A DNA stretch of 64,000 nt from contig CAKOZD010000001.1 in assembly GCA_934131175.1 (NCBI GenBank), forward strand, positions 32,928 through 96,927, written 5' to 3'. The translations under genes were made by a program, and so were the position numbers. Shown here one piece after another: positions 9,600 to 64,000 of this stretch (the first letter of the stretch is position 1; each line of letters opens with the position of its first letter). The notes beneath the pieces were generated by a model that was given only the letters and a program-made list of their open reading frames with translations, did not search any database and was not told where the DNA came from. The stretch is from an uncultured Bacilli bacterium (GTDB lineage: Bacteria; Bacillota_I; Bacilli_A; RF39; UBA660).

Positions 9600-9869
9600 T
9601 TACATCTTTTTATTAAGAAAATTATAACTAATTAAAAATCCAAATATAATTAATAAAAGAAAATATAAATGTAAAATTCCATTATTTAAATAATTTAAAA
9701 TTACAAAATACAAAATAGAAATAAATAAAAACAAAGAAATATAATATAAAATTCTTAACCTATATCTTCTTAAAATTAAAAATTTATAATTAACTTTAAA
9801 CATAAAAAACAAGAAAACACCAAATATAAAAGAAAAAAACATACTAATAATTTGAGTAACTAAATTCAT
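9600..9869 (-). CDS. yabQ: Spore cortex biosynthesis membrane protein YabQ-like
   Basis: 89 aa polytopic membrane protein directly downstream of yabP and overlapping it by 1 nt. Position is syntenic with yabQ. Confidence 0.45.
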   Translation of the reverse strand: MNLVTQIISMFFSFIFGVFLFFMFKVNYKFLILRRYRLRILYYISLFLFISILYFVILNYLNNGILHLYFLLLIIFGFLISYNFLNKKM

Positions 9870-10159
9870 TATTTAAATAACCTATTGAAAATACCATCTT
9901 CTTCTTTCTTTTTATTCTCAACAACATAACTAATTGAATCAATAGTTCCTTTAATAGTAACATTTCCAGCAAGTGTATCTAATTTTATAAGTTCTAAACC
10001 TTCTCCTTTAATAACCATAAATCCCATAGTCGTTTCCAAAATAAAATGTAACTTATCAAAATTATCTATTTTTTTAACACCGGTAATTACAAGAGTTTTT
10101 CTTTCAAGTAAACTAACACTATGATTATAATTATTTATTGTAGAACTTTCCTTATCCAT
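9869..10159 (-). CDS. yabP: Sporulation protein YabP
   Basis: 96 aa. YabP-family motifs (LVITGVKKIDNFD...MGFMVIKGEGLEL) and synteny. Confidence 0.7.
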   Translation of the reverse strand: MDKESSTINNYNHSVSLLERKTLVITGVKKIDNFDKLHFILETTMGFMVIKGEGLELIKLDTLAGNVTIKGTIDSISYVVENKKKEEDGIFNRLFK

Positions 10160-10230: not shown

Positions 10231-10509
10231 TTATTCTTCGGTAGCTGGTTCATCTTCTGCTTTTTCATAAGCTTCTAAAATAGCTTCTTCAAACATAGCA
10301 CGAACTTCAGGATTAATTGGATGAGCGATATCGCGGTATCCTCCTGTAGCAGTTTTACGACTTGGCATTGCTATAAATAAACCGTTGTCTCCTTCAATAA
10401 TACGAATATCATGTACTGCAAAACTATCATCTAATAATACAGATGCAATTCCCTTCATACGAGAACCTTCCTTATCAATTTTACGTACATTTACAGATGT
10501 AATCTTCAT
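10231..10509 (-). CDS. spoVG: Septation protein SpoVG
   Basis: [46 protein letters not shown] is near-identical to the SpoVG consensus. Confidence 0.93.
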
Positions 10510-10592: not shown

Positions 10593-10805
10593 TTAACCAA
10601 CTATTTTCAAGTTATTTATAAGTAAATCGCTATAAGTAAAAGACAAAGTCCTACCATCACAAGTACTTATAGTGAATATTGCAGGATATGCTTTATCAAT
10701 AAATCCTTCAAAAATTTCATTTTGATTTCTAGGTCCCTTATAAAAGAATTTCCTTTTTATACCAATATTTTTATAAACAATATTTTTTGCAATATTAATA
10801 TTCAT
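10593..10805 (-). CDS. veg: Veg-like small protein
   Basis: 70 aa. GIKRKFFYKGPRNQNEIFEGFIDKAYPAIFTI...SFTYSDL aligns with B. subtilis Veg (GKRLTLKANGGRRK..ETYPSVFVIQ...SYSYADI). Syntenic position next to yabG. Confidence 0.6.
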   Translation of the reverse strand: MNINIAKNIVYKNIGIKRKFFYKGPRNQNEIFEGFIDKAYPAIFTISTCDGRTLSFTYSDLLINNLKIVG

Positions 10806-11581
10806 CGTGGATACCCCACATACATAGTACCATTAGTAATTATTCCTCCAATACCATCACTACCATATTTTGTTTTCTTAATCATATTAATTAAATCAAT
10901 ACTTTGATTTTTATCAGATAAAGCAACACTTGATGCTATTATTGCAGGATCTAGAGCATGAATATTTATCCTTTTAGGACTCGATGCAAAATTAGCACCT
11001 GCTTGAATTAGTTTTTCGTAATTAGACTGACAAGCACCAGCTATTATAATTAACTTATCTTGACTCTTTTCATATTTTCTTGCCTCTTTAATAGCCGAAA
11101 TAAAATTAGATGAATTTTCATAATTATTTAAATCATTTTCATCGTGTTTTTTTGAAAAATAAGCATCATGACCAGTAACAACAACAATATCCGGTCTATA
11201 TTCTTTTATAAGATTAACAATTTTAGAGGAAACACTTTTTTCAGGCAAAGTAATTCCATTCGCCTTAATACCCATATTTTTATAAAATTTCATACATCTA
11301 TTCAAATAATCATTATCTCCATCAATATGTAATATTTTTCCAGGTATATAAAAATAATTATCTCTATCCATATGAATTAAAGATAAATTTCTCTTTATTA
11401 TAGAATCATCATCATTTAAAACATCATTAACTATAGTAAGATCATCTATATCAGCATCAGCATATAAACGTAAATCAACGCCTTTTAAAAAAACATTTTG
11501 TTGATCTATACTAATAATTTTAAAAACGATGTCATGATTATGAGAAATACGACTTACTAAATCACCCACTTTGAATTTCAA
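10802..11581 (-). CDS. yabG: Sporulation-specific protease YabG-like
   Basis: 259 aa. N-terminal MKFKVGDLV...FKII and overall pattern match YabG. Position is syntenic between ksgA and veg. Confidence 0.6.
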   Translation of the reverse strand: MKFKVGDLVSRISHNHDIVFKIISIDQQNVFLKGVDLRLYADADIDDLTIVNDVLNDDDSIIKRNLSLIHMDRDNYFYIPGKILHIDGDNDYLNRCMKFYKNMGIKANGITLPEKSVSSKIVNLIKEYRPDIVVVTGHDAYFSKKHDENDLNNYENSSNFISAIKEARKYEKSQDKLIIIAGACQSNYEKLIQAGANFASSPKRINIHALDPAIIASSVALSDKNQSIDLINMIKKTKYGSDGIGGIITNGTMYVGYPR

Positions 11582-15261: not shown

Positions 15262-16782
15262 TTACTTTGTAGTATCAATTCTCATAAATAATGGAGATGG
15301 TTGACCTAAAGAATAATTATTATCATCTAAATAACTAAAATCTTTTTTATCATTTGATAATTGGTTAAGTATTTTATCACTAGTGTCAGTTAAGAATGGT
15401 GCTAGGAAAACTGCACATACTCTAATAGCTTCTAATAAATTATATAAAACAGTTTCAAGTCTATCTTTTAAAGCCTCATCCTTAGCAAGAACCCATGGAG
15501 TAGTTTCATCTATATACTTATTACTTAATCTTAATAAATTAAATATTTCAGTAATAGCATCACAAATTTGTAATTTATCCATCTTTTCAGTTACTTTACT
15601 ATCTAAATTATTAATATTCATAATAAAGTCTGCATCAATATCATCATATACTTTCTTATTAGTAACTTTTCCATCAAAATATTTATTTGCCATAGAAATA
15701 GTTCTTTGAACTAAATTTCCTAAAATATTAGCAAGATCACCATTTATTCTTTCAATTAATAAATCTTTTGAGAAAACACCATCACTTGCAAATGGAATTT
15801 CATGTAAGAAATAATATCTAACAGCATCTACACCAAATTCATTAACTAAATAATCTGCATATAAAACATTTCCTTTTGATTTACTCATCTTTCCATCACT
15901 CATTATAACCCAAGGATGTCCAAATACTTGTTTAGGTAATGGTAAATCTAAACTCATCAAGAAACATGGCCAATAAATAGTATGGAATCTAATAATATCT
16001 TTACCAATTACATGAATGTCAGCTGGCCAATATTTCTTAAACATGTCAGTTTGACTATCTATATCATATCCGATATTAGTAATATAATTTGTCAATGCAT
16101 CAAGCCAAACATAAACTACATGCTTAGGATCAAAATCCACTGGTATTCCCCAACTAAATGATGTACGTGAAACACATAAATCTTGTAATCCAGGTTTAAT
16201 AAAATTATTAATCATTTCATTTTTTCTTGCGGCAGGTTGAATAAACTCAGGATGTTCTTCAATGTATTTTTCAAGTCTATCTTGATATTTACTTAATTTA
16301 AAGAAGTATGCTTCCTCACATTTTTCTTCAACATCACGTCCACAATCAGGACATTTATCATCTACTAATTGACTTTCTGTCCAAAAAGATTCACAAGGAG
16401 TACAGTATAATCCTTTATATTCTCCTTTGTAAATATCCCCTTTATCATACATATATTTAAAAATATGTTGTACTACTTTTTCATGATTTTCATCTGTAGT
16501 TCTAACAAATTTATCATAACTTGTGTTCATAATATCCCAAATATTTTTAATTTCACTTGAAACATTATCAACAAATTCCTTAGGACTTATACCAGCTTCT
16601 TTTGCTTTAATCTCTATTTTCTCACCATGTTCATCAGTACCAGTTTGAAAATAAACATCATATCCTTTTAATCTTTTAAATCTAGCAATTGCATCAGAAA
16701 GAACTATCTCATAAGTATTACCAATATGAGGCTTTCCTGAAGTATATGCAATAGCTGTTGAAATATAAAATTTTTCTTTCAT
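15262..16782 (-). CDS. metG: Methionine--tRNA ligase (short form)
   Basis: 506 aa. HIGN motif (PHIGNTYE), KMSKS motif, CxxC zinc knuckles. RBS ggaggg upstream. Confidence 0.93.
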   Translation of the reverse strand: MKEKFYISTAIAYTSGKPHIGNTYEIVLSDAIARFKRLKGYDVYFQTGTDEHGEKIEIKAKEAGISPKEFVDNVSSEIKNIWDIMNTSYDKFVRTTDENHEKVVQHIFKYMYDKGDIYKGEYKGLYCTPCESFWTESQLVDDKCPDCGRDVEEKCEEAYFFKLSKYQDRLEKYIEEHPEFIQPAARKNEMINNFIKPGLQDLCVSRTSFSWGIPVDFDPKHVVYVWLDALTNYITNIGYDIDSQTDMFKKYWPADIHVIGKDIIRFHTIYWPCFLMSLDLPLPKQVFGHPWVIMSDGKMSKSKGNVLYADYLVNEFGVDAVRYYFLHEIPFASDGVFSKDLLIERINGDLANILGNLVQRTISMANKYFDGKVTNKKVYDDIDADFIMNINNLDSKVTEKMDKLQICDAITEIFNLLRLSNKYIDETTPWVLAKDEALKDRLETVLYNLLEAIRVCAVFLAPFLTDTSDKILNQLSNDKKDFSYLDDNNYSLGQPSPLFMRIDTTK

Positions 16783-16789
16783 AATTATC

Positions 16790-17010
16790 CCTCCAAAAAA
16801 AAATTACTATAAACATAAGGACGAACAATATCGCGGTACCACCTTATTTTATAATAATTAATATTATACACTTATATAGTTAACGCCTATCTACGTCTAT
16901 ACCTACATATCGATATAGAAGTTCAGAAGCCATACTTTTATAAAAAAATTATACTCATTTTCACCAACAGAGTTCTCTAAAATAATTTTTCTTATAAAGC
17001 TCTTCATCAA
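16790..17010 (-). promoter_or_regulatory. T-box riboswitch leader of metG (Met specifier)
   Basis: Minus strand contains the hallmark T-box sequence AAGGUGGUACCGCG (revcomp of ~16829-16846), followed by a U10 run before the metG RBS. Upstream are stem I elements: a GA/K-turn-like UGAUGAAGAGC, an AGAGA box, a candidate specifier region containing AUG-G, and an F-box-like GCGUUA. Confidence 0.6.
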
Positions 17011-17060
17011 AACATTTAAAATATGAGAATAATATAACATAAATATATTAAATTAACAAG

Positions 17061-22526: not shown

Positions 22527-23247
22527 TTATTACCTCCTGTAATTTTTTATATTCTTCTGTATCATTACCTTCTAAATCATGAAGAATTAGGGGTTTATCA
22601 ACAACAAGACCACATTTTCCAGCCTTTTGTCCCTCAATCAATACGAGAGTAGAATTAGAATTAATATCATTATATATAAATTTAATTTTCTTTGGCTCTA
22701 TATTATTTTTCTTAAAACAATCGATTATTTCAATCAATCTATCACTTCTATGAACCATGCAAAAAGTACCATTATCCTTTAATACTCTTTTAGCACAATC
22801 AACAACTCCATTTAAATCAATTAATACTTCATGTCTCGCTATCATTTTCTCATAACTTAAATTTTTAATACTTTTTTCTTCATTTTTAAAGTAAGGTGGA
22901 TTACATAAAACTAAATCAAAAGAGTTACAATTATTATCAGAAAATTCTTTTATATCGGAATTAACAATTTCAATACAATCACTTAACTTATTTTGAATAA
23001 TGCTCTTTTTTGCTAAATCACATAACTTTTTCTGTATTTCCACTCCAATTATTTGACTTTTAGTTCTTCGAGACATGATTAATGGTACAATAGCATTTCC
23101 TGTACAAAAATCAACTATTTTTTTATCTCTTAAACGAATTGTAGAGAAATTAGCTAAAATTATACTGTCTAATGAAAAAGAAAAAAAATCAGTATTCTGA
23201 TAAATTTTCATATTTTTATATCCTAAAACATCATTTATAATTTCCAT
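22504..23247 (-). CDS. SAM-dependent methyltransferase, YabB/TrmN6-like (tRNA m6A37)
   Basis: NPPY(F) motif LCNPPYF and SAM-binding DFCTGNAIV. Syntenic with B. subtilis yabB. Confidence 0.7.
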   Translation of the reverse strand: MEIINDVLGYKNMKIYQNTDFFSFSLDSIILANFSTIRLRDKKIVDFCTGNAIVPLIMSRRTKSQIIGVEIQKKLCDLAKKSIIQNKLSDCIEIVNSDIKEFSDNNCNSFDLVLCNPPYFKNEEKSIKNLSYEKMIARHEVLIDLNGVVDCAKRVLKDNGTFCMVHRSDRLIEIIDCFKKNNIEPKKIKFIYNDINSNSTLVLIEGQKAGKCGLVVDKPLILHDLEGNDTEEYKKLQEVINDDTEKL

Positions 23248-24037
23248 TTTTATTATTATCTCCAGATATTTTTATTATTCCTTTTTCTTTTAAATCCACA
23301 GAATATGTATTATTAAAAACATCAATTGAAACAACTTTACCAGTTCCTTGAGGTGTTTCAACATTATGTCCAACTTTTGGTAAATTTTTCTTTAAATCTG
23401 TATAAATATCGTTTTCATAAGCAAGACAACATAACAATCTTCCACAAATACCATTTATTTTACTAGGATTTAAAGCCAACATTTGATTTTTTGCCATATT
23501 AATTGAAACACTATTAAAATCAGTTAAAAACGAATTACAACAAAGCATCAAACCACAAGGACCTATTCCGCCAATTTTTTTTGATTTATCTCTTACACCA
23601 ATTTGTCTAAGTTCTATTCTAGTTTTATATTTTTGAGCTAATTTTTTAGCCAATTCTCTAAAATCAACTCTATTATCAGACAAAAAAGATAAAATAAGTT
23701 GAGAATTATCAAAGTTCATATAAGAATCAATAAAATTCATATCAAGTTCTAATTCCTGACTAATTTTTTTAGCATCTATTAAAGACTTTTCGGAAATAAC
23801 ACGATTTTTTTCTATTTTCTTTTTATCTTCATCTTCTACAATTCGACTTACATTAAACAATGGCAATACTAAATTTTCTTCTTTTTCCTCATATTTTTCT
23901 TTTAAAATACACCCAGAAAAAAGACCATTATCTGTTTCAAAAATGATATTATCTCCAGTATTTAATTCTAATGAATTAGGAGATAAATAATAAACAATTT
24001 TAGTTTCTGGAACAATTGCAACAACTACTTCTACCAT
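23231..24037 (-). CDS. ricT: PSP1-domain protein RicT/YaaT
   Basis: 268 aa. Cys-rich PSP1 C-terminal region (GPCGLMLCC...GICGRLLCCLAYE). Syntenic with yaaT next to holB. Confidence 0.8.
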   Translation of the reverse strand: MVEVVVAIVPETKIVYYLSPNSLELNTGDNIIFETDNGLFSGCILKEKYEEKEENLVLPLFNVSRIVEDEDKKKIEKNRVISEKSLIDAKKISQELELDMNFIDSYMNFDNSQLILSFLSDNRVDFRELAKKLAQKYKTRIELRQIGVRDKSKKIGGIGPCGLMLCCNSFLTDFNSVSINMAKNQMLALNPSKINGICGRLLCCLAYENDIYTDLKKNLPKVGHNVETPQGTGKVVSIDVFNNTYSVDLKEKGIIKISGDNNKNGNYK

Positions 24038-28286: not shown

Positions 28287-28296
28287 TTAATTCCTC

Positions 28297-28386
28297 CAAA
28301 ATAAAAAGTGCACATGAAAGGAGGATCTTAAGGCTGCTATTTTCCAATCCTGACCTGTTTCAATCACTTTCATTGCACGAATACAT
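28297..28386 (-). ncRNA. ffs: Signal recognition particle RNA (small 4.5S-type)
   Basis: Minus strand reads ...GUGCAAUGAAAGUGAUUGAAACAGGUCAGGAUUGGAAAAUAGCAGCCUUAAGAUCCUCCUUUCAUGUGCAC. It contains the universally conserved domain IV elements CAGGUCAGG, a GGAA tetraloop and AGCAGCC. 5' and 3' ends pair (GUGCAAUGAAAG / CUUUCAUGUGCAC). It overlaps the listed 60-aa ORF 28287..28469, which is therefore spurious. Confidence 0.78.
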
Positions 28387-28642
28387 TGTATTATAAACTT
28401 AATAAAAAGTAAATGTTTTTTTTCTTTTTTTATAAGATAGCTGTAAAAATCTGTTATATTTCTGAACATTTTAAGTTAATTTAAAATTTTTATCTCTATA
28501 TATAACAAAAACTGTGATTTTTTTATTTTGCAATTTTTAGGTGTTAAAAGTCTTTGCATTTTTATACTTTTTGTGTTGATATTTACTTTCAATCTTCTTT
28601 ATAATCACATAATATATTAGAATATTAACTTTTGCTGTGGAA

Positions 28643-28662
28643 AATGTTTCACGTGAAACATT
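28643..28662. promoter_or_regulatory. parS: parS site 1 (perfect 16-bp TGTTTCACGTGAAACA within a 20-bp palindrome); preceded by DnaA-box-like TGTGGAAAA (28636..28644)
   Basis: aatgtttcacgtgaaacatt is a perfect palindrome matching the ParB/Spo0J parS consensus TGTTNCACGTGAAACA. Confidence 0.72.
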
Positions 28663-28821
28663 AAAAAATTAAATTTAATTAATACATAGTGCATATATTT
28701 GAATTAATAGTTTTGAAATAAATAAAAACAAAGAAAAGCGCTTATATTATACTCGAAAAAAGTTAATTAAACTTTTATATTTAATAAACATTAGTAACTT
28801 ATAAACTTAACCTGTGAATAG

Positions 28822-28841
28822 AATGTTTCACGTGAAACATT
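28822..28841. promoter_or_regulatory. parS: parS site 2 (perfect TGTTTCACGTGAAACA); preceded by DnaA-box-like TGTGAATAG (28813..28821)
   Basis: Identical 20-bp palindrome to site 1. Confidence 0.72.
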
Positions 28842-28948
28842 GAAAGTTGAAAAAAAAAACACATCTTAACATTAATAAAATATCTACTATATTAATAAAG
28901 ATTTATATAATTTAATCTATCATTTATAAACTTTTATTGTGGAAAAAA

Positions 28949-28964
28949 GTTTCACGTGAAACTA
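28949..28964. promoter_or_regulatory. parS: parS site 3 (variant AGTTTCACGTGAAACT, 14/16 to consensus, still palindromic); preceded by TGTGGAAAA (28938..28946)
   Basis: 16-bp perfect palindrome agtttcacgtgaaact with the same 5' flank architecture as sites 1 and 2. Confidence 0.55.
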
Positions 28965-28996
28965 TTACAATATTTAACTTTTTCTGTGAATAAAAT

Positions 28997-29010
28997 ATTT
29001 CCTGGGAAAT
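28997..29010. promoter_or_regulatory. Noc-binding-site-like palindrome ATTTCCTGGGAAAT (13/14 to NBS consensus); preceded by TGTGAATAA (28985..28993)
   Basis: Matches the NBS consensus ATTTCCCGGGAAAT except for C7T. Same flank unit as the parS copies. Confidence 0.45.
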
Positions 29011-29174
29011 AATTTTAAAATTTACATATTTTTACAAATAAATAACTAAATTTTATTAAATAAATGAATAAAAATTAAAAAATGCATTCTCGTAAATTTA
29101 GATTATATATTATTCATCTATTAATTCTTAAATTTATTAGAATGCATTTTGCAAATTGTTAATATTTCCCAAAT

Positions 29175-29190
29175 TATTTCCCGGGAAATA
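29175..29190. promoter_or_regulatory. Noc-binding site (perfect 16-mer TATTTCCCGGGAAATA inside a 24-bp palindrome, 29171..29194), with an extra half-site ATATTTCCC at 29163..29170
   Basis: Perfect match to the published B. subtilis NBS consensus. Lies 25 nt downstream of the gyrA stop. Confidence 0.6.
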
Positions 29191-29217
29191 ATTTTAATTG
29201 TTGAAAAAAAGAAGAGA

Positions 29218-33627: not shown

Positions 33628-34740
33628 CTACTTTCTTTCTACATTCCCATTATTAACATTGAAAATGTATGCATTTTCTACATATTTTTTATTAATATTT
33701 CTTAGATCTGTTGTAGTAATTATACTTTGAACATCATCTAAATTAATAATTTTCAATAACTTATTCCTCTTTTTTATATCTAATTCACTAAAAATATCAT
33801 CTAATAGTAGAACTGGAGAAGTACCAGTAAACTCTTTAAATATAGGAATTTCTGATATTTTAAAAGATAAAATAGCTAATTTTTGTTGTCCTTGAGAACC
33901 ATAATATTTTAAATCATTACCTTTATATTCAAAATAGAAATCATCTCTATGAGGACCATATATAGTCATACCATAGTTAAGTTCTTTTAAATAATTTTTC
34001 TTAAATGTATGTTTTAACTTTTTTCTTATATTTTCAGAATCATAATCATTAATTTGAATATTAGGAACATATTTAACAACAATACCATTATCATTTGATA
34101 TATCTTTATAATATTTATCTATATATATATTTATAAAATCAATATATTCTTTTCTTTTTTGATAAATATATGTTGCTTTCTCTATTAATTTATCAGTTAT
34201 TATATCCAAATAATTAATATCTGCAATACTATTATTAAATAATATCTTCAAATATTCATTTCTCGTTTTTAATAATTTATTATATTCATTATAAATTTTT
34301 ATATAACTTCTAGATAATTGAGATAACTGAATGTTAAGTAAATTCCTACGAACATTAGGAGAACCTTTTATTATTTCTAAATCATCAGGAGTAAAAACTA
34401 TTACATTTAGATTTGTTATATAATCTGCTATTTTTCTAATAGTATTTTTATTAACTTCTAATTTTTTTTCTTCTTCAGAAATAACAATAGATAATTTGGT
34501 AATAATTTTATTATTTTTTATTGTTCCATTTAATGAACATTTATTTTTACCAAACTGTATTATATTTGGACTATTTCCTACTCTATGTGATTTAGTTAGA
34601 GCTAAAATAGTAATTGCTTCAAGAATATTAGTTTTACCTTGAGCATTATCTCCAACAAAAATATTCATCTTATCATTTAAAGTTATATTACATTTTGAAT
34701 AATTTCTAAAATTAAGTAAGTTAATTTTTCTAATTATCAT
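33628..34740 (-). CDS. recF: DNA replication and repair protein RecF
   Basis: 370 aa. Walker A GDNAQGKTNILEA, signature and Walker B LLLDDIFSELD. Confidence 0.92.
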   Translation of the reverse strand: MIIRKINLLNFRNYSKCNITLNDKMNIFVGDNAQGKTNILEAITILALTKSHRVGNSPNIIQFGKNKCSLNGTIKNNKIITKLSIVISEEEKKLEVNKNTIRKIADYITNLNVIVFTPDDLEIIKGSPNVRRNLLNIQLSQLSRSYIKIYNEYNKLLKTRNEYLKILFNNSIADINYLDIITDKLIEKATYIYQKRKEYIDFINIYIDKYYKDISNDNGIVVKYVPNIQINDYDSENIRKKLKHTFKKNYLKELNYGMTIYGPHRDDFYFEYKGNDLKYYGSQGQQKLAILSFKISEIPIFKEFTGTSPVLLLDDIFSELDIKKRNKLLKIINLDDVQSIITTTDLRNINKKYVENAYIFNVNNGNVERK

Positions 34741-34838
34741 TTTAAACCGCTAAAAAGACACATACATAAAATTACCCCCTAACATGGTATTCCTATACAT
34801 ACACGTATATTATACCATAAATAGCCCTATTTAAGCAG

Positions 34839-34866
34839 AAAAAAATAGCTAAATTAGCTATTTTTT
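34839..34866 (-). terminator. Rho-independent terminator after the comK-like gene (hairpin aaaaaaatagct/agctattttttt overlapping the stop codon)
   Basis: Near-palindromic hairpin flanked by an A-run and a T-run, so it could act bidirectionally. Confidence 0.5.
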
Positions 34867-35339
34867 CTTTTTGATAACACATTTTTTAACCTCGTTGCTC
34901 TAGCAATTTGATTTTCCATTGATCGAAGTGAGCACGGAACTATAATTTCCTTCTTATTGTCAAAAACAATTCTCGTATTGCTCTCATCTACTCTATAGAT
35001 ATTTTCGACTCTTCCAACAGAAATCCACGCACAATCGTCAGCTCTAGGCGATGTTGTAGGAAATGCTATTAATTCATTTGTATCAGCAATAACTATTGGC
35101 ACTTTATATTCGGCTCCTAGTATTTCTTTAGCTCCCTTCTTTCTGCCTTCATAGCTACTACCAAAATATTTACAACTATCTTCCATAATACTTAAAGGAT
35201 TATCATCAATTATATAACGACTATCATCTTCATATATTAGGCTAGACTCCTTTCCGTTTGGCAAAATTGCCAATGTTCCCTTATTAAACTCGTATAAATT
35301 CTTGTTATTTAACATATTATCTTTTCTCCCCCAAAACAA
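34854..35339 (-). CDS. comK: ComK-family competence transcription factor homolog
   Basis: 161 aa. GTLAILPNGKES...CKYFGSSYEGRKKGAKEI...PIVIADTNELIAFPTTSPRADDCAWIS...IVFDNKKEI aligns along the full length with B. subtilis ComK (GATIAVLPEE...CRFFGSSYAGRKAGTYEV...PIMVDPSNQIFLFPTLSSTRPQCGWIS...VTFSNGKTM). RBS gggggag is followed by 6 nt and then ATG. Confidence 0.72.
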   Translation of the reverse strand: MFWGRKDNMLNNKNLYEFNKGTLAILPNGKESSLIYEDDSRYIIDDNPLSIMEDSCKYFGSSYEGRKKGAKEILGAEYKVPIVIADTNELIAFPTTSPRADDCAWISVGRVENIYRVDESNTRIVFDNKKEIIVPCSLRSMENQIARATRLKNVLSKRKNS

Positions 35340-35461
35340 GAGCTAATCTGCTCTTGCATAATAATCATATAACAATAAGTTTTACACTTTTGTAGAATTT
35401 TGACGAAAGAACACATAAAATTTTCTTTCTATATAAATTATTAGTAATTTTTATAATTTTT

Positions 35462-35496
35462 TTGCAAAAAAAAAGAGAAATTTAAATTTTTCTCTT
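35462..35496 (-). terminator. Rho-independent terminator after dnaN
   Basis: Minus strand AAGAGAAAAAUUUAAAUUUCUCUU hairpin followed by a U9 run. Confidence 0.6.
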
Positions 35497-36622
35497 AATA
35501 TGTTCTAATTGGTAAAACTAATTGAGTTAAAGTTTCGTCTTCTGTTGATTTTATAAGGATTGGTTTTACTTCTCCTACAAAATGTAAATCAACAGTTTCT
35601 GTTGAAAAACTCTTTAAAGCTTCCATCATATATTTAGCACTAAATGAAATCTTAATATCTTCACTATTATTTTTAGAAATACTCATTTTTTCTTCTACAC
35701 GACCAATTTCTGCAGAACTACTTTTTAATGTTAATGTATTTCCTTCAGTTTCTAAAGTAACTATATTCTTTTCTTTATCACTAGTTAAAATACTTACACG
35801 GTCAATTACACTATAGAAATCATTTAAATTAGTACTTACTACTAAATAAGAATCATCAGGTAAAAGATTTGCAGTATTAGGATATGTTCCATTAATTAAA
35901 CGAGATTCAAATTTTAAATTACCATTTTTAAATAAAACTTTATTATTAAAGATATGAACCTCAACATCTTCACTATCATCACCTAAAATTTTTGTAAATT
36001 CAATTAAGTTATGACTTGGAATTACAATATTATAATTTTCTTCACTTGCTTTTTCTAATTTAACTATTTTTCTAGCTAAACGATATGAATCTGTAGAATT
36101 ACATTCAAGAATATCCCCTACTATATTAAAGTTAATACCAGTTAAAACAGGCTTACTTTCTTCATTAGATGTTGCAAATGCTGTTTGATTAACAATACTT
36201 TTTAAAACACCAGCATTGATATTAATTTTTTTCTTACTTTCTTCTAAACCAACATTTGGATATTCTGATTCACTAATACCATTTAAATTAAATTCACTAT
36301 TTTCTGTGTAAATTAATATTTTTAATTCATCAATTACTTCTACATTTATATATTGGTCAGGTAATTTTCTAACTATATCTAATATATATTTACCTTGAAT
36401 AATAATACTACCTTCGCTATCTATTTTAAATTCATCATCATTTACAGATTCAATAGTAGTTTGAATAGTAATATCGTTATCACTTGCTGTTAAAGTAAGT
36501 TTTTTCTTTTTTAATTCAAATTTAATACCTGCAAGAACTGGAATTAAATTTTTAGTAGATATTGCTTTTGATACTTTTGATAAAGCGTCTAATAATAAAT
36601 CTTTTTTAATTGTAAATTTCAT
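35495..36622 (-). CDS. dnaN: DNA polymerase III beta sliding clamp
   Basis: 375 aa. Three-domain beta-clamp pattern. Synteny dnaA-dnaN. Confidence 0.95.
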   Translation of the reverse strand: MKFTIKKDLLLDALSKVSKAISTKNLIPVLAGIKFELKKKKLTLTASDNDITIQTTIESVNDDEFKIDSEGSIIIQGKYILDIVRKLPDQYINVEVIDELKILIYTENSEFNLNGISESEYPNVGLEESKKKININAGVLKSIVNQTAFATSNEESKPVLTGINFNIVGDILECNSTDSYRLARKIVKLEKASEENYNIVIPSHNLIEFTKILGDDSEDVEVHIFNNKVLFKNGNLKFESRLINGTYPNTANLLPDDSYLVVSTNLNDFYSVIDRVSILTSDKEKNIVTLETEGNTLTLKSSSAEIGRVEEKMSISKNNSEDIKISFSAKYMMEALKSFSTETVDLHFVGEVKPILIKSTEDETLTQLVLPIRTY

Positions 36623-36745
36623 ATATTATTCCTTCTTTCTTATTTATATTTATATTATAGCTGTGGAAAAAGTTGAAAACTCAAAAATTGTCTTATTTTT
36701 CAACAAAAATGTATCCACATAACCTGTGGAAAAACATCTTAAAAC
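36623..36745. promoter_or_regulatory. oriC: oriC part 2: dnaA-dnaN intergenic DnaA-box cluster
   Basis: DnaA boxes are TGTGGAAAA at 36662..36670, TATCCACA at 36712..36719 and TGTGGAAAA at 36725..36733. Confidence 0.7.
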
Positions 36746-38173: not shown

Positions 38174-38583
38174 ACCTATTCTACATTAAAATAATTAAAA
38201 ATGAAAGTAAAAAAACATAAAAAAAACAAATTAATTTTGTAGATTAAATTTGATGTGTCGATATATACAATAACATATTTTTTCATTTTATTAAATAAAA
38301 AAATAATTAAATTTTTTTTAGTACAAAATTAGGGTACTTTTCAACATAATTTTACACTTCAAAAAAATCAAAAAAATAGCATTCGACATTTTCCACCAAT
38401 ATTCCACAAAGTTTTCAACAATTGAAGTGTATATATAATAAGGATAAAAATAAGTTTTCCACATTTTCCACAGAAAAGTTATTAATAGGGTATAAAAAAG
38501 TTTTAAACAAACTTGTGGAAATTGTTAATAACTAAAAAAATAATTAAAATAAATTAAAAAAAGAATAAATTAACAACTTTTAT
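38174..38583. promoter_or_regulatory. oriC: oriC part 1: DnaA-box cluster plus AT-rich unwinding region upstream of dnaA
   Basis: Box-like 9-mers are at 38389..38397 (TTTTCCACC), 38400..38408, 38455..38463 and 38464..38472 (tandem TTTTCCACA x2), and 38514..38522 (TGTGGAAAT). An extremely AT-rich stretch at 38200-38340 is the candidate DNA-unwinding element. Confidence 0.7.
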
Positions 38584-44772: not shown

Positions 44773-46053
44773 ATGTTTAATACAGAAAAAGATGAGGTTG
44801 TACAACTATATTTAGACGATATTATTCCAAATAGATTTCAACCTAGAGAAATATTTGATGAAAGAGCATTAAAAGAGTTAGCGGTTTCTATAAGAGAACA
44901 TGGTGTTATTCAACCAATAATTGTAAGAAGTGTTGCAAACGGAAAATACGAGATAATAGCAGGAGAAAGAAGATACAAAGCATCAGCATTAGCTGGATTA
45001 ACAAAAATTCCTGCAATAATAAGAAATTTAGATGATAAAGAAAGTTCAAAAGTCGCATTATTAGAAAATTTACAAAGAAAAAATTTAAACCCAATAGAAG
45101 AGGCTAGAACATATCAAAAGATTCTTGAAATTGATCAAATGACACAAGAAGAATTAGCAAAAACAATGGGTAAGAGTCAATCTGCAGTAGCAAATAAATT
45201 AAGATTACTTTCATTACCAGATGCTATACAAAATGCTCTTTTAAAAGAACAAATTTCTGAAAGACATGCAAGAGCACTTATAAATGTACCAGATACAAAG
45301 AAACAAAAAGATTTATTAAAAAAGATAATTGACAACAAAATGAGTGTACGTGCAGTAGAAGAAGAAATTAAAAAATTGTATCCAAAAGATACAAAGAGTG
45401 GAAATGATGTTCCATTGATGCCACAGGACCAAGTTGCTTCAGCATCAGCTTTTGTTAATAGTAATCCTTTAATACCAACTGCAGAGTTACCACAAGATGA
45501 ATCAAATTTCGGAAAGGTTACTATTGCACCACCAGAAGGAGAGGAGATGCCTACGGGTAAATTTATAAATTATGGAGAAATAGGAAAAGAAAAAGATGAA
45601 GAGCCAACTATACCAAATATTCCAAATTCAGTTACATCAATAGATGTTAATACCTTAAGAAATAATACTAACGATATTAATTCTGGAAATAATGGTTCAT
45701 CATTAGATAATTTATTAAATATTGGAGGACAATCAAGTTTTATAACTCCAGCAGAAAAAATAGTTAAAACAGATACATTTGATAAAGAAAATAAATCAAA
45801 AGACTATTTCAGTACAGCAGATTTATCAGCATTAAATATTCCACAAGAAACATCTAATATCGTTCCAATTAACAATGGTATGATTCCAACTTCAAACGTT
45901 GCTGAAGAAAATTATACAATAGAAGAAGCAACAGAAAAGATTAGAGAATTAGTAAATGATTTAAAAGAACATGGTGTTAATATAAATACTGATGAAATGA
46001 ACTTTGAAAAGTCTTATCAAATTATCATAAAATTATATAAAGACAATAAATAA
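44773..46053 (+). CDS. noc: ParB-family nucleoid occlusion protein Noc-like, with a ~215-aa low-complexity C-terminal extension
   Basis: ParB N-domain (IPNRFQPRE, IAGERR) and HTH. The recognition helix GKSQSAVANKLRLL carries the Noc-type specificity residues (Gln and Lys where Spo0J has Arg and His/Met), matching B. subtilis Noc GKGQSTIANKLRLL. The gidB-noc-soj-spo0J gene order matches Bacillus. Confidence 0.7.
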   Translation: MFNTEKDEVVQLYLDDIIPNRFQPREIFDERALKELAVSIREHGVIQPIIVRSVANGKYEIIAGERRYKASALAGLTKIPAIIRNLDDKESSKVALLENLQRKNLNPIEEARTYQKILEIDQMTQEELAKTMGKSQSAVANKLRLLSLPDAIQNALLKEQISERHARALINVPDTKKQKDLLKKIIDNKMSVRAVEEEIKKLYPKDTKSGNDVPLMPQDQVASASAFVNSNPLIPTAELPQDESNFGKVTIAPPEGEEMPTGKFINYGEIGKEKDEEPTIPNIPNSVTSIDVNTLRNNTNDINSGNNGSSLDNLLNIGGQSSFITPAEKIVKTDTFDKENKSKDYFSTADLSALNIPQETSNIVPINNGMIPTSNVAEENYTIEEATEKIRELVNDLKEHGVNINTDEMNFEKSYQIIIKLYKDNK

Positions 46054-46149: not shown

Positions 46150-46947
46150 ATGGGAAAGGTTATATCGTTAGTTAATCAAAAAGGTGGAGTAGGAAAAACT
46201 ACCACAAGTATTAATCTTTCTGCATCATTAGCAGTATTAGGGAAAAGAGTTTTGTTAATAGATTTAGACCCTCAAGGAAATACAACTACTGGTGTAGGAA
46301 TAAATAAAGGAGAAATAGAAAAAAGTATATATGATGTTTTAATTGGAGAGTGTAATGCAACAGAAGCTATGATTAAAACAAAATACAAAGGATTATATGT
46401 TCTACCAGCAACAATAAATTTAGCAGGAATTGATGCTGAATTATTAGAAAAAAGTAGAACACAAAATGGATTTAAAAAAGGTGAACAATTAAAAAATAGT
46501 TTAGCAGACCTAAAGGATAGTTTTGACTATATTATAATAGATTGTCCACCATCTCTAGGTGTAATTACAACCAATGCGTTAACAGCATCAAACTCAGTAA
46601 TCATCCCCGTACAATGTGAATTCTTTGCATTAGAGGGAATTACTCAGTTATTAAAAACAATAATGTTGGCTCAAAAAGGATTAAATCCAACATTAGATAT
46701 AGAAGGGGTACTATTGACTATGTTAGATTCAAGAACAAATCTTGGGTTTGAAGTTGTAGAAGATATAAGAAGATTCTTTAAGGAAAAAGTATATAATACA
46801 ATAATACCAAGACTTGTAAGATTAACAGAAGCTCCATCTCATGGAGAACCAATAGTAGCATATGACCCAAAAAGTAGAGGGTCAGAAGCCTATATCAATC
46901 TAGCAAAGGAAGTGATTGAAAGAAATGAAGGAAATGGAAATAAATAA
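46150..46947 (+). CDS. soj: Chromosome partitioning ATPase ParA/Soj
   Basis: Deviant Walker A KGGVGKTT. 265 aa. Confidence 0.93.
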   Translation: MGKVISLVNQKGGVGKTTTSINLSASLAVLGKRVLLIDLDPQGNTTTGVGINKGEIEKSIYDVLIGECNATEAMIKTKYKGLYVLPATINLAGIDAELLEKSRTQNGFKKGEQLKNSLADLKDSFDYIIIDCPPSLGVITTNALTASNSVIIPVQCEFFALEGITQLLKTIMLAQKGLNPTLDIEGVLLTMLDSRTNLGFEVVEDIRRFFKEKVYNTIIPRLVRLTEAPSHGEPIVAYDPKSRGSEAYINLAKEVIERNEGNGNK

Positions 46948-47857
46948 TATTCATGAAAATGAACACGAAGGAGAAATACCTAAAAGAAGAGCGTTAGGAA
47001 GAGGTTTGGAAGAATTATTTAGTAGTGAAGTACTTGATTATAGTTCAGTTGAAAAACAAATTGTAGAAGAAACATCAAAAGATGAAATAGTAAACATAAA
47101 ATTAAGTGAACTTAGAAGTAATCCATATCAGCCAAGAAAAATTTTTGATGAAAAAGCTTTGGAAGAACTTGCTAATTCAATTAAAGAACATGGCGTTTTC
47201 CAACCAATAATTGTAAAAAAATCAATTAAAGGCTATGAAATAATAGCAGGTGAGCGAAGAGTTAAAGCATCACTTATGGCAGGGTTAACAGAAATTCCAG
47301 CAATTGTTAGAGATTTTAATGATACTCAGATGATGGAGATTGCTTTACTTGAAAACTTACAAAGAGAAAACTTAACAGCTATAGAAGAAGCCAATGCTTA
47401 TAAAAAATTACAAGATACTCTTGGTTTGACACAAGAACAATTAGCAAATAGACTTGGAAAAAGTAGAAGTCATGTAACTAATATGTTAGGTCTTCTAAAT
47501 TTACCAGAAACAATCCAAAGTGATATAAATGATAAAAAAATCACTATGGGACATGCAAGAGTTCTAAGTAAATTACAAGATAAAGTACAACAAGCAGAAT
47601 TAGAAGAAAAAGTAATTTCAGAAGGAATGAGTGTTAGAGAATTAGAAGAATTAACACAAGCTCCAAAAATAATAAAAACAAACCCACAGAAACCAAAAAT
47701 AAGAGAAAATAATGAATATAGTTACTTACAAGAGGAGTTAAGTGAAAAATTAGGAACAAAAGTTATAGTTAAGAAAAATAAATTAGAAATAAGTTTTGTT
47801 AATGGAAATGATTTAAATAGACTATTAGAATTAATGCATATAGAGGTTGGAAAGTAA
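46916..47857 (+). CDS. spo0J: Chromosome partitioning protein ParB/Spo0J
   Basis: RALGRGLEELF, NPYQPRK and GERR motifs. The recognition helix GKSRSHVTNMLGLL has Spo0J-type specificity residues (Arg retained). Confidence 0.92.
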   Translation: MKEMKEMEINNIHENEHEGEIPKRRALGRGLEELFSSEVLDYSSVEKQIVEETSKDEIVNIKLSELRSNPYQPRKIFDEKALEELANSIKEHGVFQPIIVKKSIKGYEIIAGERRVKASLMAGLTEIPAIVRDFNDTQMMEIALLENLQRENLTAIEEANAYKKLQDTLGLTQEQLANRLGKSRSHVTNMLGLLNLPETIQSDINDKKITMGHARVLSKLQDKVQQAELEEKVISEGMSVRELEELTQAPKIIKTNPQKPKIRENNEYSYLQEELSEKLGTKVIVKKNKLEISFVNGNDLNRLLELMHIEVGK

Positions 47858-62514: not shown

Positions 62515-64000
62515 TCAATTACTTGTAATTTCATCAAATGTAGTATCTGTTTCTTTAGGCTCAGTTCCTTTTAAAAAATACATCAATTTTTGCTTTTTGT
62601 CACTTTCAGTTGCTGGTTTTCCAGAAATTGGTTCTACAAGCATACCAACAACATTTTTAGGTTTTTCATACCAAACATCTTCATCTTTCATATCTTTCTC
62701 ATAACTTTCTACAGTTTTATACCAAATATTTTGAGCATATTTATAATCCTTTTTAGATAGTTCTTTATTATTATCATATCCAACCCATACAGCACACACA
62801 ATCTTTTTATTAAAACCAATATTCCAATTATCTCCATTAGTAGTACCACTTTTTAAAGCATAGGTATGAGTTAATTTTCCATTAAGTCCAATACCCGTTG
62901 GATAATTATAATCAACATATAATGGATCATAAGTTGCTGTAAGCATATTATTTAGAATATATACAAGTGAAGAATTTAAAACTAGTTCTTTATTTTTTTT
63001 ATATTCATAGAGAACTTCTCCTTTACCATTTTCAATCTTTTCAATAAAATGTCCCTCTACTTTATATCCTTCATTTGCAAAAGCAGCATATCCTTGAGCC
63101 ATTTCAATTATATTTATTTCATTGGTACCTAAAGGAAGAGAAGGAACACTTTCAAGTTTTGATTTAATTCCAACTCTTCTTGCGACATTGATAAGAGCAT
63201 CATATCCTAAAAACATATGTGTTTTAACAGCATATATATTATCACTATAAGCAATAGCAGTAGCCATACTTATAGCTTTATTTCCATATTTATCATTATA
63301 ATTAACTGGTGAATATGTCTTGCCATTCTCTAAAGGAAAAGTTGTCTTTTCACTTGTAAAAGCAGTACTAGAAGTAAAACCATTTTCTAATGCAGCATAA
63401 TATAAATAAGGTTTCATAGTAGATCCTACCTGCCTTTTGGAAGAAATTGCACGATTATAAGTAGAATTATTATAGTCTCTTCCTCCAATAAGTGCCATTA
63501 TACCACCGTTTTCTGGATTCATTACAACACTAGAAGTCTCTATTTTAGAATCATCTGGAAAAGTATTTTTTACATTTTCTTCAAGACTACTTTGAATATC
63601 ATAATTAAAGTTTGTATATATTTTTAACCCATTATAATCACTATAATTTCTTGGAATACTATCAATACTCTCAAGTTCATTCATAACCGCATCAATATAG
63701 TAATTTATACTGGTTAAATTTTCTTTATCAGAATTTGCTGTAATAGTAAGTTCTTCACTATAAGCTTTATCTTTCTCACTTGATGAAATAATTCCGTTAT
63801 TTACTAAAGCATTTAATACAACAAGTTGTCTCTTTTTAGCATTTTCAAAATTTATAATAGGAGAATATATACTAGGAGCCTTTGGAATACCACTAAGCAT
63901 AGAAGCTTCAGCTAAATCTAAATCTTTACTACTTTTATTAAAATAAAACTTAGAAGCATTCTCAATTCCATATTTTCCATGACCATAATTAATAGTATTT
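62515..64000 (-). CDS. Class A penicillin-binding protein (PBP1A-type), N-terminus off-window
   Basis: Transpeptidase motifs STMKP, SDN and KSGTT. Hand translation of 63901..64000 continues the frame into the glycosyltransferase motif (YGHGKYGIENASKFYFNKS...LAEASMLSGIPKAPS), so the listed Met is internal. Confidence 0.88.
   Translation of the reverse strand, partial: NTINYGHGKYGIENASKFYFNKSSKDLDLAEASMLSGIPKAPSIYSPIINFENAKKRQLVVLNALVNNGIISSSEKDKAYSEELTITANSDKENLTSINYYIDAVMNELESIDSIPRNYSDYNGLKIYTNFNYDIQSSLEENVKNTFPDDSKIETSSVVMNPENGGIMALIGGRDYNNSTYNRAISSKRQVGSTMKPYLYYAALENGFTSSTAFTSEKTTFPLENGKTYSPVNYNDKYGNKAISMATAIAYSDNIYAVKTHMFLGYDALINVARRVGIKSKLESVPSLPLGTNEINIIEMAQGYAAFANEGYKVEGHFIEKIENGKGEVLYEYKKNKELVLNSSLVYILNNMLTATYDPLYVDYNYPTGIGLNGKLTHTYALKSGTTNGDNWNIGFNKKIVCAVWVGYDNNKELSKKDYKYAQNIWYKTVESYEKDMKDEDVWYEKPKNVVGMLVEPISGKPATESDKKQKLMYFLKGTEPKETDTTFDEITSN

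Follow-up and report, generated by a model that had tools for sequence, protein, structure and literature searches.

A ComK-family gene in the dnaN-recF slot of RF39 bacteria and its putative Spo0A-type promoter boxes

We analysed a stretch of 64,000 nucleotides (referred to simply as the window; G+C content 26.7%) from contig CAKOZD010000001.1 of an uncultured Bacilli bacterium of the order RF39, family UBA660. On its minus strand, close to the replication origin, the window carries a gene for a ComK-family protein (comK) between dnaN and recF. This dnaN-comK-recF slot is an old and stable feature of the lineage, and the gene in it belongs to a conserved ComK unit that, judging from the sequence of its promoter region, is probably gated by Spo0A. 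The gene is already annotated as ComK in public metagenome-assembled genomes (MAGs); the novelty lies in the conservation of the slot and in the architecture of the promoter.

The ComK-family gene and its slot

An earlier reading of the window, made from its letters alone (the original prediction), had described the product as a full-length homologue of Bacillus subtilis ComK. A search with hidden Markov models bore this out. The product matched the Pfam family ComK (PF06338) with E=1.1e-42 and 145.8 bits against a cutoff of 22.3, residues 7–151 aligning with model positions 3–151 of 152. The two sequence blocks on which the homology had been based, FGSSY.GRK and FPT...C.WIS, were both found. 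The product is a member of the ComK family. A metagenome relative of the protein matched PF06338 with E=3.2e-47, and homologues are labelled 'competence protein ComK' by both NCBI and JGI. When the protein was scanned against NCBIfam, no model matched (the sole hit, with E=0.08, is meaningless), and a sequence search for a solved ComK structure found none.

Relatives of the locus were collected by scanning a genome collection with the ComK protein, which gave 36 loci, one per species. The closest of them, UQQI01000002.1 ('uncultured Mollicutes bacterium UMGS532'), comes from a human-gut MAG and is ~99% identical to the window. The remaining loci come from MAGs of gut or rumen origin that carry the labels Bacilli, Erysipelotrichaceae, Tenericutes or Mycoplasma sp. 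CAG:877 (locus L011); CAG-877 stands in GTDB under o__RF39, f__UBA660 (supplement of PMC10868615). Across the 36 relatives, the segment IMEDSCKYFGS and the residues G57, R58, F85, P86, and W97 were invariant. The remark that ComK is rare outside Bacilli does not apply here, the organism itself being of class Bacilli in GTDB.

The gene had been delimited as a minus-strand open reading frame (ORF) at 34854–35339, encoding 161 amino acids from a TTG codon. The ORF exists, but its start had to be moved. The TTG (35339) falls within a stem-loop, the ATG at 35315–35313 sits 10 nt past the strong Shine-Dalgarno (SD) sequence GGGGGAG (35326–35332), and the relatives begin equivalently; the product was therefore taken to be 153 amino acids long. 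This ATG is almost certainly the real start of comK, so that the coding sequence occupies 34854–35315 (153 codons and a stop) and specifies a bare ComK domain. AGGGGGA was the top enriched 7-mer 5' of comK in the relatives.

As had been stated, comK lies between dnaN, for the beta clamp of DNA polymerase III (35495–36622), and recF (33628–34740), both on the minus strand; dnaA is upstream, and gyrB and gyrA are downstream. The upstream neighbour was identified as dnaN since it is 47–99% identical to the ORF found 5' of comK in 36/36 loci, and recF was identified from the ORF list and the gene order in relatives. The proposal to compare the arrangement with relatives gave a clear result: dnaN-comK-recF was present in all 36 genomes and in at least seven metagenome contigs. 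The longer order dnaA-dnaN-comK-recF-gyrB-gyrA held in 36/36 loci, down to 41% identity for ComK and 47% for DnaN, with rnpA and yidC divergent and upstream in every relative whose contig extends that far. It may be noted that the gene said to occupy this slot in Bacillus is indeed yaaA, which in B. subtilis follows dnaA and dnaN as the third gene, BSU00030 (PMC3814617).

A degraded remnant, in a genome without competence machinery, had been named as one outcome that would refute the original prediction. The ComK ORF was intact in every one of the 36 relatives (148–159 amino acids), with a strong SD sequence of the AGGGGGA type. Purifying selection was evident from a median pairwise ratio of nonsynonymous to synonymous substitution of 0.18 (maximum 0.41; 257 pairs, with partly saturated synonymous distances). 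Given the intact ORFs, the selection and the synteny, comK is not a remnant, and its slot is old and stable.

Promoter, Spo0A-type boxes and flanking signals

A promoter with the −35 element TTCTAC had been proposed for comK. This element was not upheld: it lies 19–20 nt from the −10 hexamer, which is not canonical, and it is part of the second of the Spo0A-type boxes described below. The predicted −10 is of the extended type, TG-T-TATATG (35366–35374, minus strand), and the pattern TGnTAnnnT is kept at this position in 34 of the 36 loci. No decent −35 was found at 16–18 nt from the −10 in any of the 36 loci, the best match being ≤4/6.

When the 36 dnaN-comK spacers were aligned on the start codon and 7-mers were counted without prior assumptions, CGACAAA, TTTCGAC, and TTCGACA were the top enriched 7-mers 5' of comK apart from those of the SD sequence, at 50–80 times expectation. 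Exact TTCGACA occurred 22 times in 6.5 kb of DNA upstream of comK, compared with 20 times in the remaining 422 kb. The copies form arrays of two to three head-to-tail units with a period of 10 bp (a 7-bp core and a 3-bp A/T spacer), and the distances from box end to −10 hexamer are quantised at 11, 21, and 31 nt (20, 20, and 15 instances, respectively). Reverse-complemented, TTCGACA gives TGTCGAA, which is the core of the Spo0A-binding '0A box' (PMC3485338); footprints of Spo0A span two such boxes 3 bp apart (PMC2731898).

The array of the window reads TTCGTCA-aaa-TTCTACA-aaa-GTGTAAA (35407–35381, minus strand). Its distal box, TTCGTCA (35401–35407; reverse complement TGACGAA), matches the core at 6/7 positions and ends 29 nt from the −10. 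The second, TTCTACA (35391–35397), also matches at 6/7 and ends 19 nt from the −10, compared with 21 nt in the relatives. The proximal position, GTGTAAA (35381–35387), is degenerate with 3/7; this third box is well conserved in most relatives, 11 nt from the −10, and the promoter of locus L016 has all three boxes perfect.

The same motif was followed beyond the comK loci by scanning metagenomes for the tandem sequence TTCGACAWWWTTCGACAWWW. At least 120 contigs matched, and the 68 ORFs of the same strand with a start no more than 300 nt downstream were compared with Pfam. Among the matches listed, eight of the 68 ORFs carried Response_reg and Spo0A_C (that is, Spo0A), four were ComK, three were histidine kinases, two had the AbrB/MazE fold (AbrB-like), and one was SpoVS; spo0A was thus the commonest gene 3' of the tandem motif, and comK came next. 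By tblastn, seven of the at least 120 matched contigs were dnaN-comK-recF loci. Such a profile of downstream genes is that expected of a Spo0A site, with spo0A autoregulation, abrB and kinases represented, and comK is, on this sequence evidence, a recurrent target of the tandem motif in very low-GC organisms.

Annotations in the source databases call the low-GC proteins from the tandem-motif contigs Spo0A, and one relative bears the name Spo0A [Bacilli bacterium]. In the C-terminal domain these proteins align with the B. subtilis Spo0A-DNA complex (PDB 1LQ1), the recognition helix SRVERAIRHAIEV being identical. On low-GC 'Bacilli bacterium' contigs (L157-L164, L170-L190, L195-L203), spo0A was seen inside a glycolytic cluster (pgk or tpiA, then spo0A, then gpmI/eno), where it is preceded by perfect tandem 0A boxes. 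In Bacillus the context is spoIVB-spo0A, unlike this placement.

The repeats might instead be bound by a different regulator, for example one of the OmpR/PhoB type, with their likeness to 0A boxes a coincidence. Phased direct repeats that abut a −10 without a −35 are generally known as the classic PhoB/OmpR-type layout, and the Spo0A homologues that could be placed lie outside the comK-bearing records. Against this, the core and the 3-bp spacer are exactly those of 0A boxes, spo0A was the commonest gene 3' of the identical tandem motif among the matches listed, which fits its known autoregulation, and sporulation genes lie within the window. We regard a different regulator as unlikely.

A further possibility is that the TTCGACA repeats are weak DnaA boxes, so that comK would be under DnaA and hence under the status of replication initiation. 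The gene is ~1.3 kb from the DnaA-box region between dnaA and dnaN (36623–36745), which forms half of oriC and holds TTTTCCACA twice and GTATCCACA once, and ~3 kb from the array of TGTGGAAAA-type DnaA boxes upstream of dnaA (38174–38570). The two kinds of box are alike, as has been documented (PMC5295017): TTTTCGACA is one base off TTTTCCACA, the common DnaA box of this genome. An exact TGTCGAA stands in register inside the array upstream of dnaA, and TGTGGAA, the real DnaA box, is ~3.6-fold enriched upstream of comK in relatives, usually right past the dnaN terminator. The split between the two motifs is nevertheless sharp. TGTGGAA and TGTCGAA were counted 84 and 5 times upstream of dnaA, 41 and 0 times in the dnaA-dnaN spacer, and 8 and 22 times upstream of comK. 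At the discriminating position, 70 array units had G in 61 and T in nine, never the C of a DnaA box. Moreover, spo0A, abrB-like and spoVS genes remote from any origin have the same tandem motif upstream, and the 7+3 bp spacing is that of a Spo0A dimer. Control of comK by DnaA through these repeats is accordingly very improbable in our estimate, and identity of the repeats with DnaA boxes was rejected since the two motifs partition by location.

The exact TTCGACA inside the oriC array is on the plus strand at 38382–38388, in register with its neighbours (..TGTGGAATAT TGGTGGAAAA TGTCGAATG..). An equivalent 0A-type box lies at about the same place upstream of dnaA in at least six relatives, and a perfect tandem pair of 0A boxes is found there on one metagenome contig (L086). 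B. subtilis oriC carries Spo0A boxes, which the box at 38382–38388 recalls. A consensus DnaA box (TGTGGATAA or TGTGGAAAA) follows directly after the T-run of the dnaN terminator in about 8–10 of the 36 relatives (e.g., L016, L029, L032). In these relatives it lies 5' of the comK box array; the window has no such box after the terminator.

Binding sites for ComK itself were also sought. Pairs of Bacillus-type ComK boxes (AAAA-N5-TTTT, with spacers of 8, 18, or 31 bp) were found 5' of comK in none of the 36 loci, and the single boxes that occur there are mostly within the A/T tracts of terminators. In the whole window no pair was found with ≤1 mismatch, against ~1 expected. With no ComK-box pair in the 36 spacers, an autocatalytic loop like that of Bacillus is not apparent.

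The claim that comK is flanked by terminators of its own was confirmed by direct folding, both hairpins with their T-runs being at the positions given for them. The dnaN terminator (~35465–35496, minus strand) is weak, with an 8-bp A/T-rich stem and a T9 run (−6.5 kcal/mol); most relatives have a hairpin and T-run of other sequence at this position. The comK terminator (~34838–34867, minus strand) is strong, with a 13-bp stem that includes A/T tracts, a T-run, −11.4 kcal/mol and z=−3.5. It overlaps the stop codon, and its position is kept in relatives while its sequence differs. A generic promoter and terminator scan, which needs three G-C pairs, found neither terminator, and its promoter hits were at chance level.

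The palindrome caagagc/gctcttg reported upstream of the gene is real, but it is located at 35337–35356, 8 nt away from the 35345–35364 first assigned to it. By folding it forms a stem-loop, CAAGAGC-agatta-GCTCTTG (minus strand), in the 5' untranslated region (5'-UTR); it begins a few nucleotides past the predicted start of transcription, and 4 nt separate its end from the SD sequence. About 22–24 of the 36 loci have a hairpin in the same interval, from the predicted start of transcription to the SD sequence, with loops of 4–8 nt and stems such as GAAAAC/GTTTTC, GAAAGC/GCTTTC, GGAAAC/GTTTCC, and AAAGCC/GGCTTT. Because the length and sequence of the loop vary, we take it for an RNA hairpin and not a protein operator. 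Its place at the extreme 5' end suggests, by analogy with the rules of mRNA decay in B. subtilis, a hairpin that may stabilise the mRNA. An Rfam scan gave no match for this hairpin or for the recF leader; the Rfam matches within the window were a T-box and the signal recognition particle (SRP) RNA only.

Downstream of the comK terminator, recF has a predicted promoter (TGgTATAAT at 34817–34809) and a 77-nt leader, together spanning 34738–34817 of the minus strand. The comK-recF spacer is better conserved than comK itself, and in ~27 of the 36 relatives TATAAT is 76–78 nt away from the start of recF. The leader contains the invariant motif TGTATAGGAATAC (34799–34787), capable of folding into a hairpin of 4 bp with AGGA as its loop. 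RNAalifold returned just a 4-bp hairpin for the leader, with no covariation; as a guess, the motif resembles a CsrA-type GGA-loop site. The leader also has an upstream ORF (uORF) of eight codons (MCLFSGLK; 34763–34737), whose TGA overlaps the recF ATG, and a tandem SD-like AGGGG/AGGTGA, recF being without an SD sequence of its own.

Proposed control of comK and its alternatives

The explanation that we favour, and hold to be slightly on the probable side when taken as a whole, is that a minimal ComK unit in a fixed slot is controlled by Spo0A~P and switches on genes whose products act in DNA uptake and recombination. Spo0A~P would bind the phased boxes and control RNA polymerase at the comK promoter that lacks a −35, most probably as an activator. 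Activation is favoured because there is no −35 and the region from −50 to −24 is taken up by the boxes. At high Spo0A~P the proximal box could repress, as the R sites of B. subtilis PcomK do (PMC3297582). ComK would be made on entry into a stationary or pre-sporulation state governed by Spo0A and would then activate uptake and recombination genes elsewhere in the genome, while recF would restart transcription from its own promoter past the comK terminator. Low-level read-through past the weak dnaN terminator, together with origin-proximal copy number, may add a replication-linked input, by analogy with comCDE (PMC5034851). We infer the presence and binding of Spo0A, the sign of the regulation, the ComK regulon and the role of origin proximity from the features described here.

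Several features of the genome and of its group give indirect support for a Spo0A in this organism. The window has yabP (9869–10159), spoVG (10231–10509), and yabG, for a peptidase of family U57 (10802–11581), all on the minus strand and kept though the genome is otherwise described as strongly reduced. A contig of the same species from a Hadza metagenome (NODE_59_length_215339) was used to extend the window by 10 kb on either side, which gave ~18 kb of flanking DNA. It carries a divergent SigH-like sigma factor of 193 amino acids (L191, 17871–18452) ~7 kb past the left end of the window. This gene is in the conserved cysS-mrnC-rlmB-sigH-secE-nusG position, and SigH models fit it best, with 57 bits against a cutoff of 212. 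A ClpC-like ATPase of 661 amino acids is encoded near it. In the literature, RF39 has been predicted to form spores, with spo0A taken as a prerequisite (PMC10868615), and RF39 sequence variants were transferred alongside spore-formers in an egg-inoculation experiment (PMC7028958).

A number of points weigh against the favoured explanation. No spo0A was found in the window or in the ~18 kb of flanks, and the Spo0A homologues that could be placed are on records distinct from the 36 with comK, the accession prefixes never coinciding. A machine-learning predictor gives RF39 MAGs a sporulation probability of 0% (PMC12536801). The boxes of the window are degenerate (6/7, 6/7, and 3/7) and offset by 2 nt toward the −10 compared with those of the relatives. 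Taken alone, the tandem of the window, with two mismatches, is not significant, and at ≤3 mismatches there were six hits in 64 kb against 3.1 expected. The assignments of the comK promoter and transcription start are predictions. The proximal box falls between −35 and −10, where Spo0A represses at other promoters, so that the control might also be negative. Finally, comG, comE, comF, dprA, and ssbB genes were absent from the window and from the ~18 kb of extra flank, and these flanks had no com genes of any kind and no additional box arrays.

The last point bears on a second reading of the protein, namely that a genuine member of the ComK family has ceased to be a competence switch or has other duties besides. 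Such a protein could serve in the control of recombination or replication genes or of growth arrest, or its gene could be kept in the slot mainly by the inertia of a very stable dnaA-gyrA block. Apart from the missing uptake genes, this reading draws on the lack of Bacillus-type ComK boxes and on the Pfam coverage, from which the ~40-residue C-terminal extension of the B. subtilis protein (192 amino acids) is lacking. We also found no paper that links RF39 with ComK, comEC or competence. On the other side, purifying selection and intact genes in 36/36 loci speak for a function, and the com regulon is, to our knowledge, a target of every ComK characterised so far (B. subtilis, B. cereus, S. aureus, Listeria). 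Because com genes are not origin-proximal in Bacillus either, their absence from an origin-proximal window is uninformative. We consider a role outside competence possible but rather doubtful.

The origin-proximal position might itself be the device, replication stress lifting the copy number of comK over a threshold in the manner of pneumococcal comCDE. In Streptococcus pneumoniae, comAB and comCDE are near oriC, and a dosage rise of less than two-fold triggers competence (PMC5034851). The position of comK is conserved across deep divergence, and read-through past the weak dnaN terminator would bring in transcripts of the replication operon as well. The pneumococcal effect, however, needs positive feedback, and no autoregulatory ComK boxes are detectable at comK. 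Positional conservation is, moreover, expected whatever the function, because the dnaA-gyrA block is syntenic in most Firmicutes. Dosage as the operative device, proposed here by analogy, appears improbable.

A more ambitious version of the favoured explanation can be drawn up, in which the origin region acts as a decision module. Here an array read by Spo0A~P would drive a non-autoregulated ComK, and uptake and recombination would be coupled both to the phosphorelay of sporulation and, through copy number and DnaA, to the status of replication. The DnaA box often present upstream, the 0A box in the oriC array, and a recF gated by its leader and uORF would be further elements of such a module. 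We think it unlikely that the module exists in this full form. If it does, its logic would be unlike the bistable switch of Bacillus with its ComK autocatalysis, and it would offer a handle for genetic tractability or explain DNA scavenging by uncultured auxotrophs.

For the favoured explanation, an intact and selected ComK that is apparently wired to Spo0A suggests natural competence as the cells move toward sporulation. The RF39 lineage and those related to it abound in the gut; they are uncultured, their genomes are reduced and they have numerous auxotrophies (PMC12306168). The finding bears on horizontal gene flow in the gut, on DNA as a nucleotide supply for auxotrophs, and on future genetic access to these organisms. 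It also provides a natural comparison with Bacillus, in which the same regulator and a Spo0A input are combined here with no visible autoregulation and a fixed position beside oriC. It thereby becomes testable whether Spo0A and position on the chromosome act together to gate competence.

Other features of the window are recorded here. Between the SRP RNA (28295–28389) and the end of gyrA, a 600-bp non-coding stretch (28600–29200) holds a centromere-like cluster. It contains three parS sites (TGTTTCACGTGAAACA at 28660–28645 and 28839–28824, and TTCACGTGAAAC at ~28960–28949), two Noc-type sites (ATTTCCCGGGAAAT at 29189–29176 and ATTTCCCAGGAAAT at 29010–28997), and DnaA boxes at 28636, 28938, and 28985. 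A ParB/Noc-like gene for 426 amino acids (44773–46053) and soj-spo0J (46150–47857) are both in the window, as is yaaT/ricT (PSP1; 23231–24037). A penicillin-binding protein ORF of 461 codons (62515–63900, minus strand) begins inside the transglycosylase domain, and the same gene has 649 codons in Hadza contigs of the species (L193, 7442–9391). The shorter form could be due to a frameshift, a sequencing error, or a start beyond an in-frame stop. An ordinary T-box leader (16814–17019, minus strand; 106 bits in Rfam) lies 5' of metG (15262–16782).

Comparison with known systems

In the Bacillus model, ComK binds AT-rich boxes as a tetramer and activates transcription. The RF39 protein is of the same family over the full domain, with both conserved blocks, and like comK of B. 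subtilis its gene stands alone as a monocistronic unit. It differs in size, having 153 amino acids and no C-terminal extension where B. subtilis ComK has 192, and in location, the B. subtilis gene being far from the origin and the RF39 gene lying between dnaN and recF. Pairs of AAAA-N5-TTTT boxes are missing at RF39 comK, so the autoregulation that underlies bistability in B. subtilis is not evident there. A putative Spo0A input would be shared: at PcomK of B. subtilis, Spo0A acts directly, through five sites that open and close the window of competence (PMC3297582).

The candidate array resembles known Spo0A promoters (spo0A, abrB, spoIIG, and spoIIE of Bacillus; spo0A and sigH of Clostridioides difficile) in its TGTCGAA cores, 3-bp spacers and head-to-tail order. 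As at Spo0A-dependent promoters, the boxes take the place of the −35 element. It is unlike the known tandem-0A promoters in its target, comK, and in having up to three boxes that reach to 11 nt from the −10 in unusually rigid phasing; for RF39 the binding is predicted.

As with comAB and comCDE of S. pneumoniae, a master switch of competence would lie a few kilobases from oriC (PMC5034851). The regulators are unrelated, a two-component system with a peptide in one case and ComK in the other. The pneumococcal dosage effect is experimentally shown and autocatalytic, neither of which holds for RF39 comK.

Finally, RF39 comK occupies the same slot X of the dnaA-dnaN-X-recF-gyrB-gyrA block as yaaA of Bacillus (rlbA, S4-like). 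The two proteins are unrelated, and the gene in the RF39 slot has its own promoter and terminators. Unlike in the Bacillus block, recF of RF39 is set apart by a separate predicted promoter, a conserved leader, and a coupled uORF.

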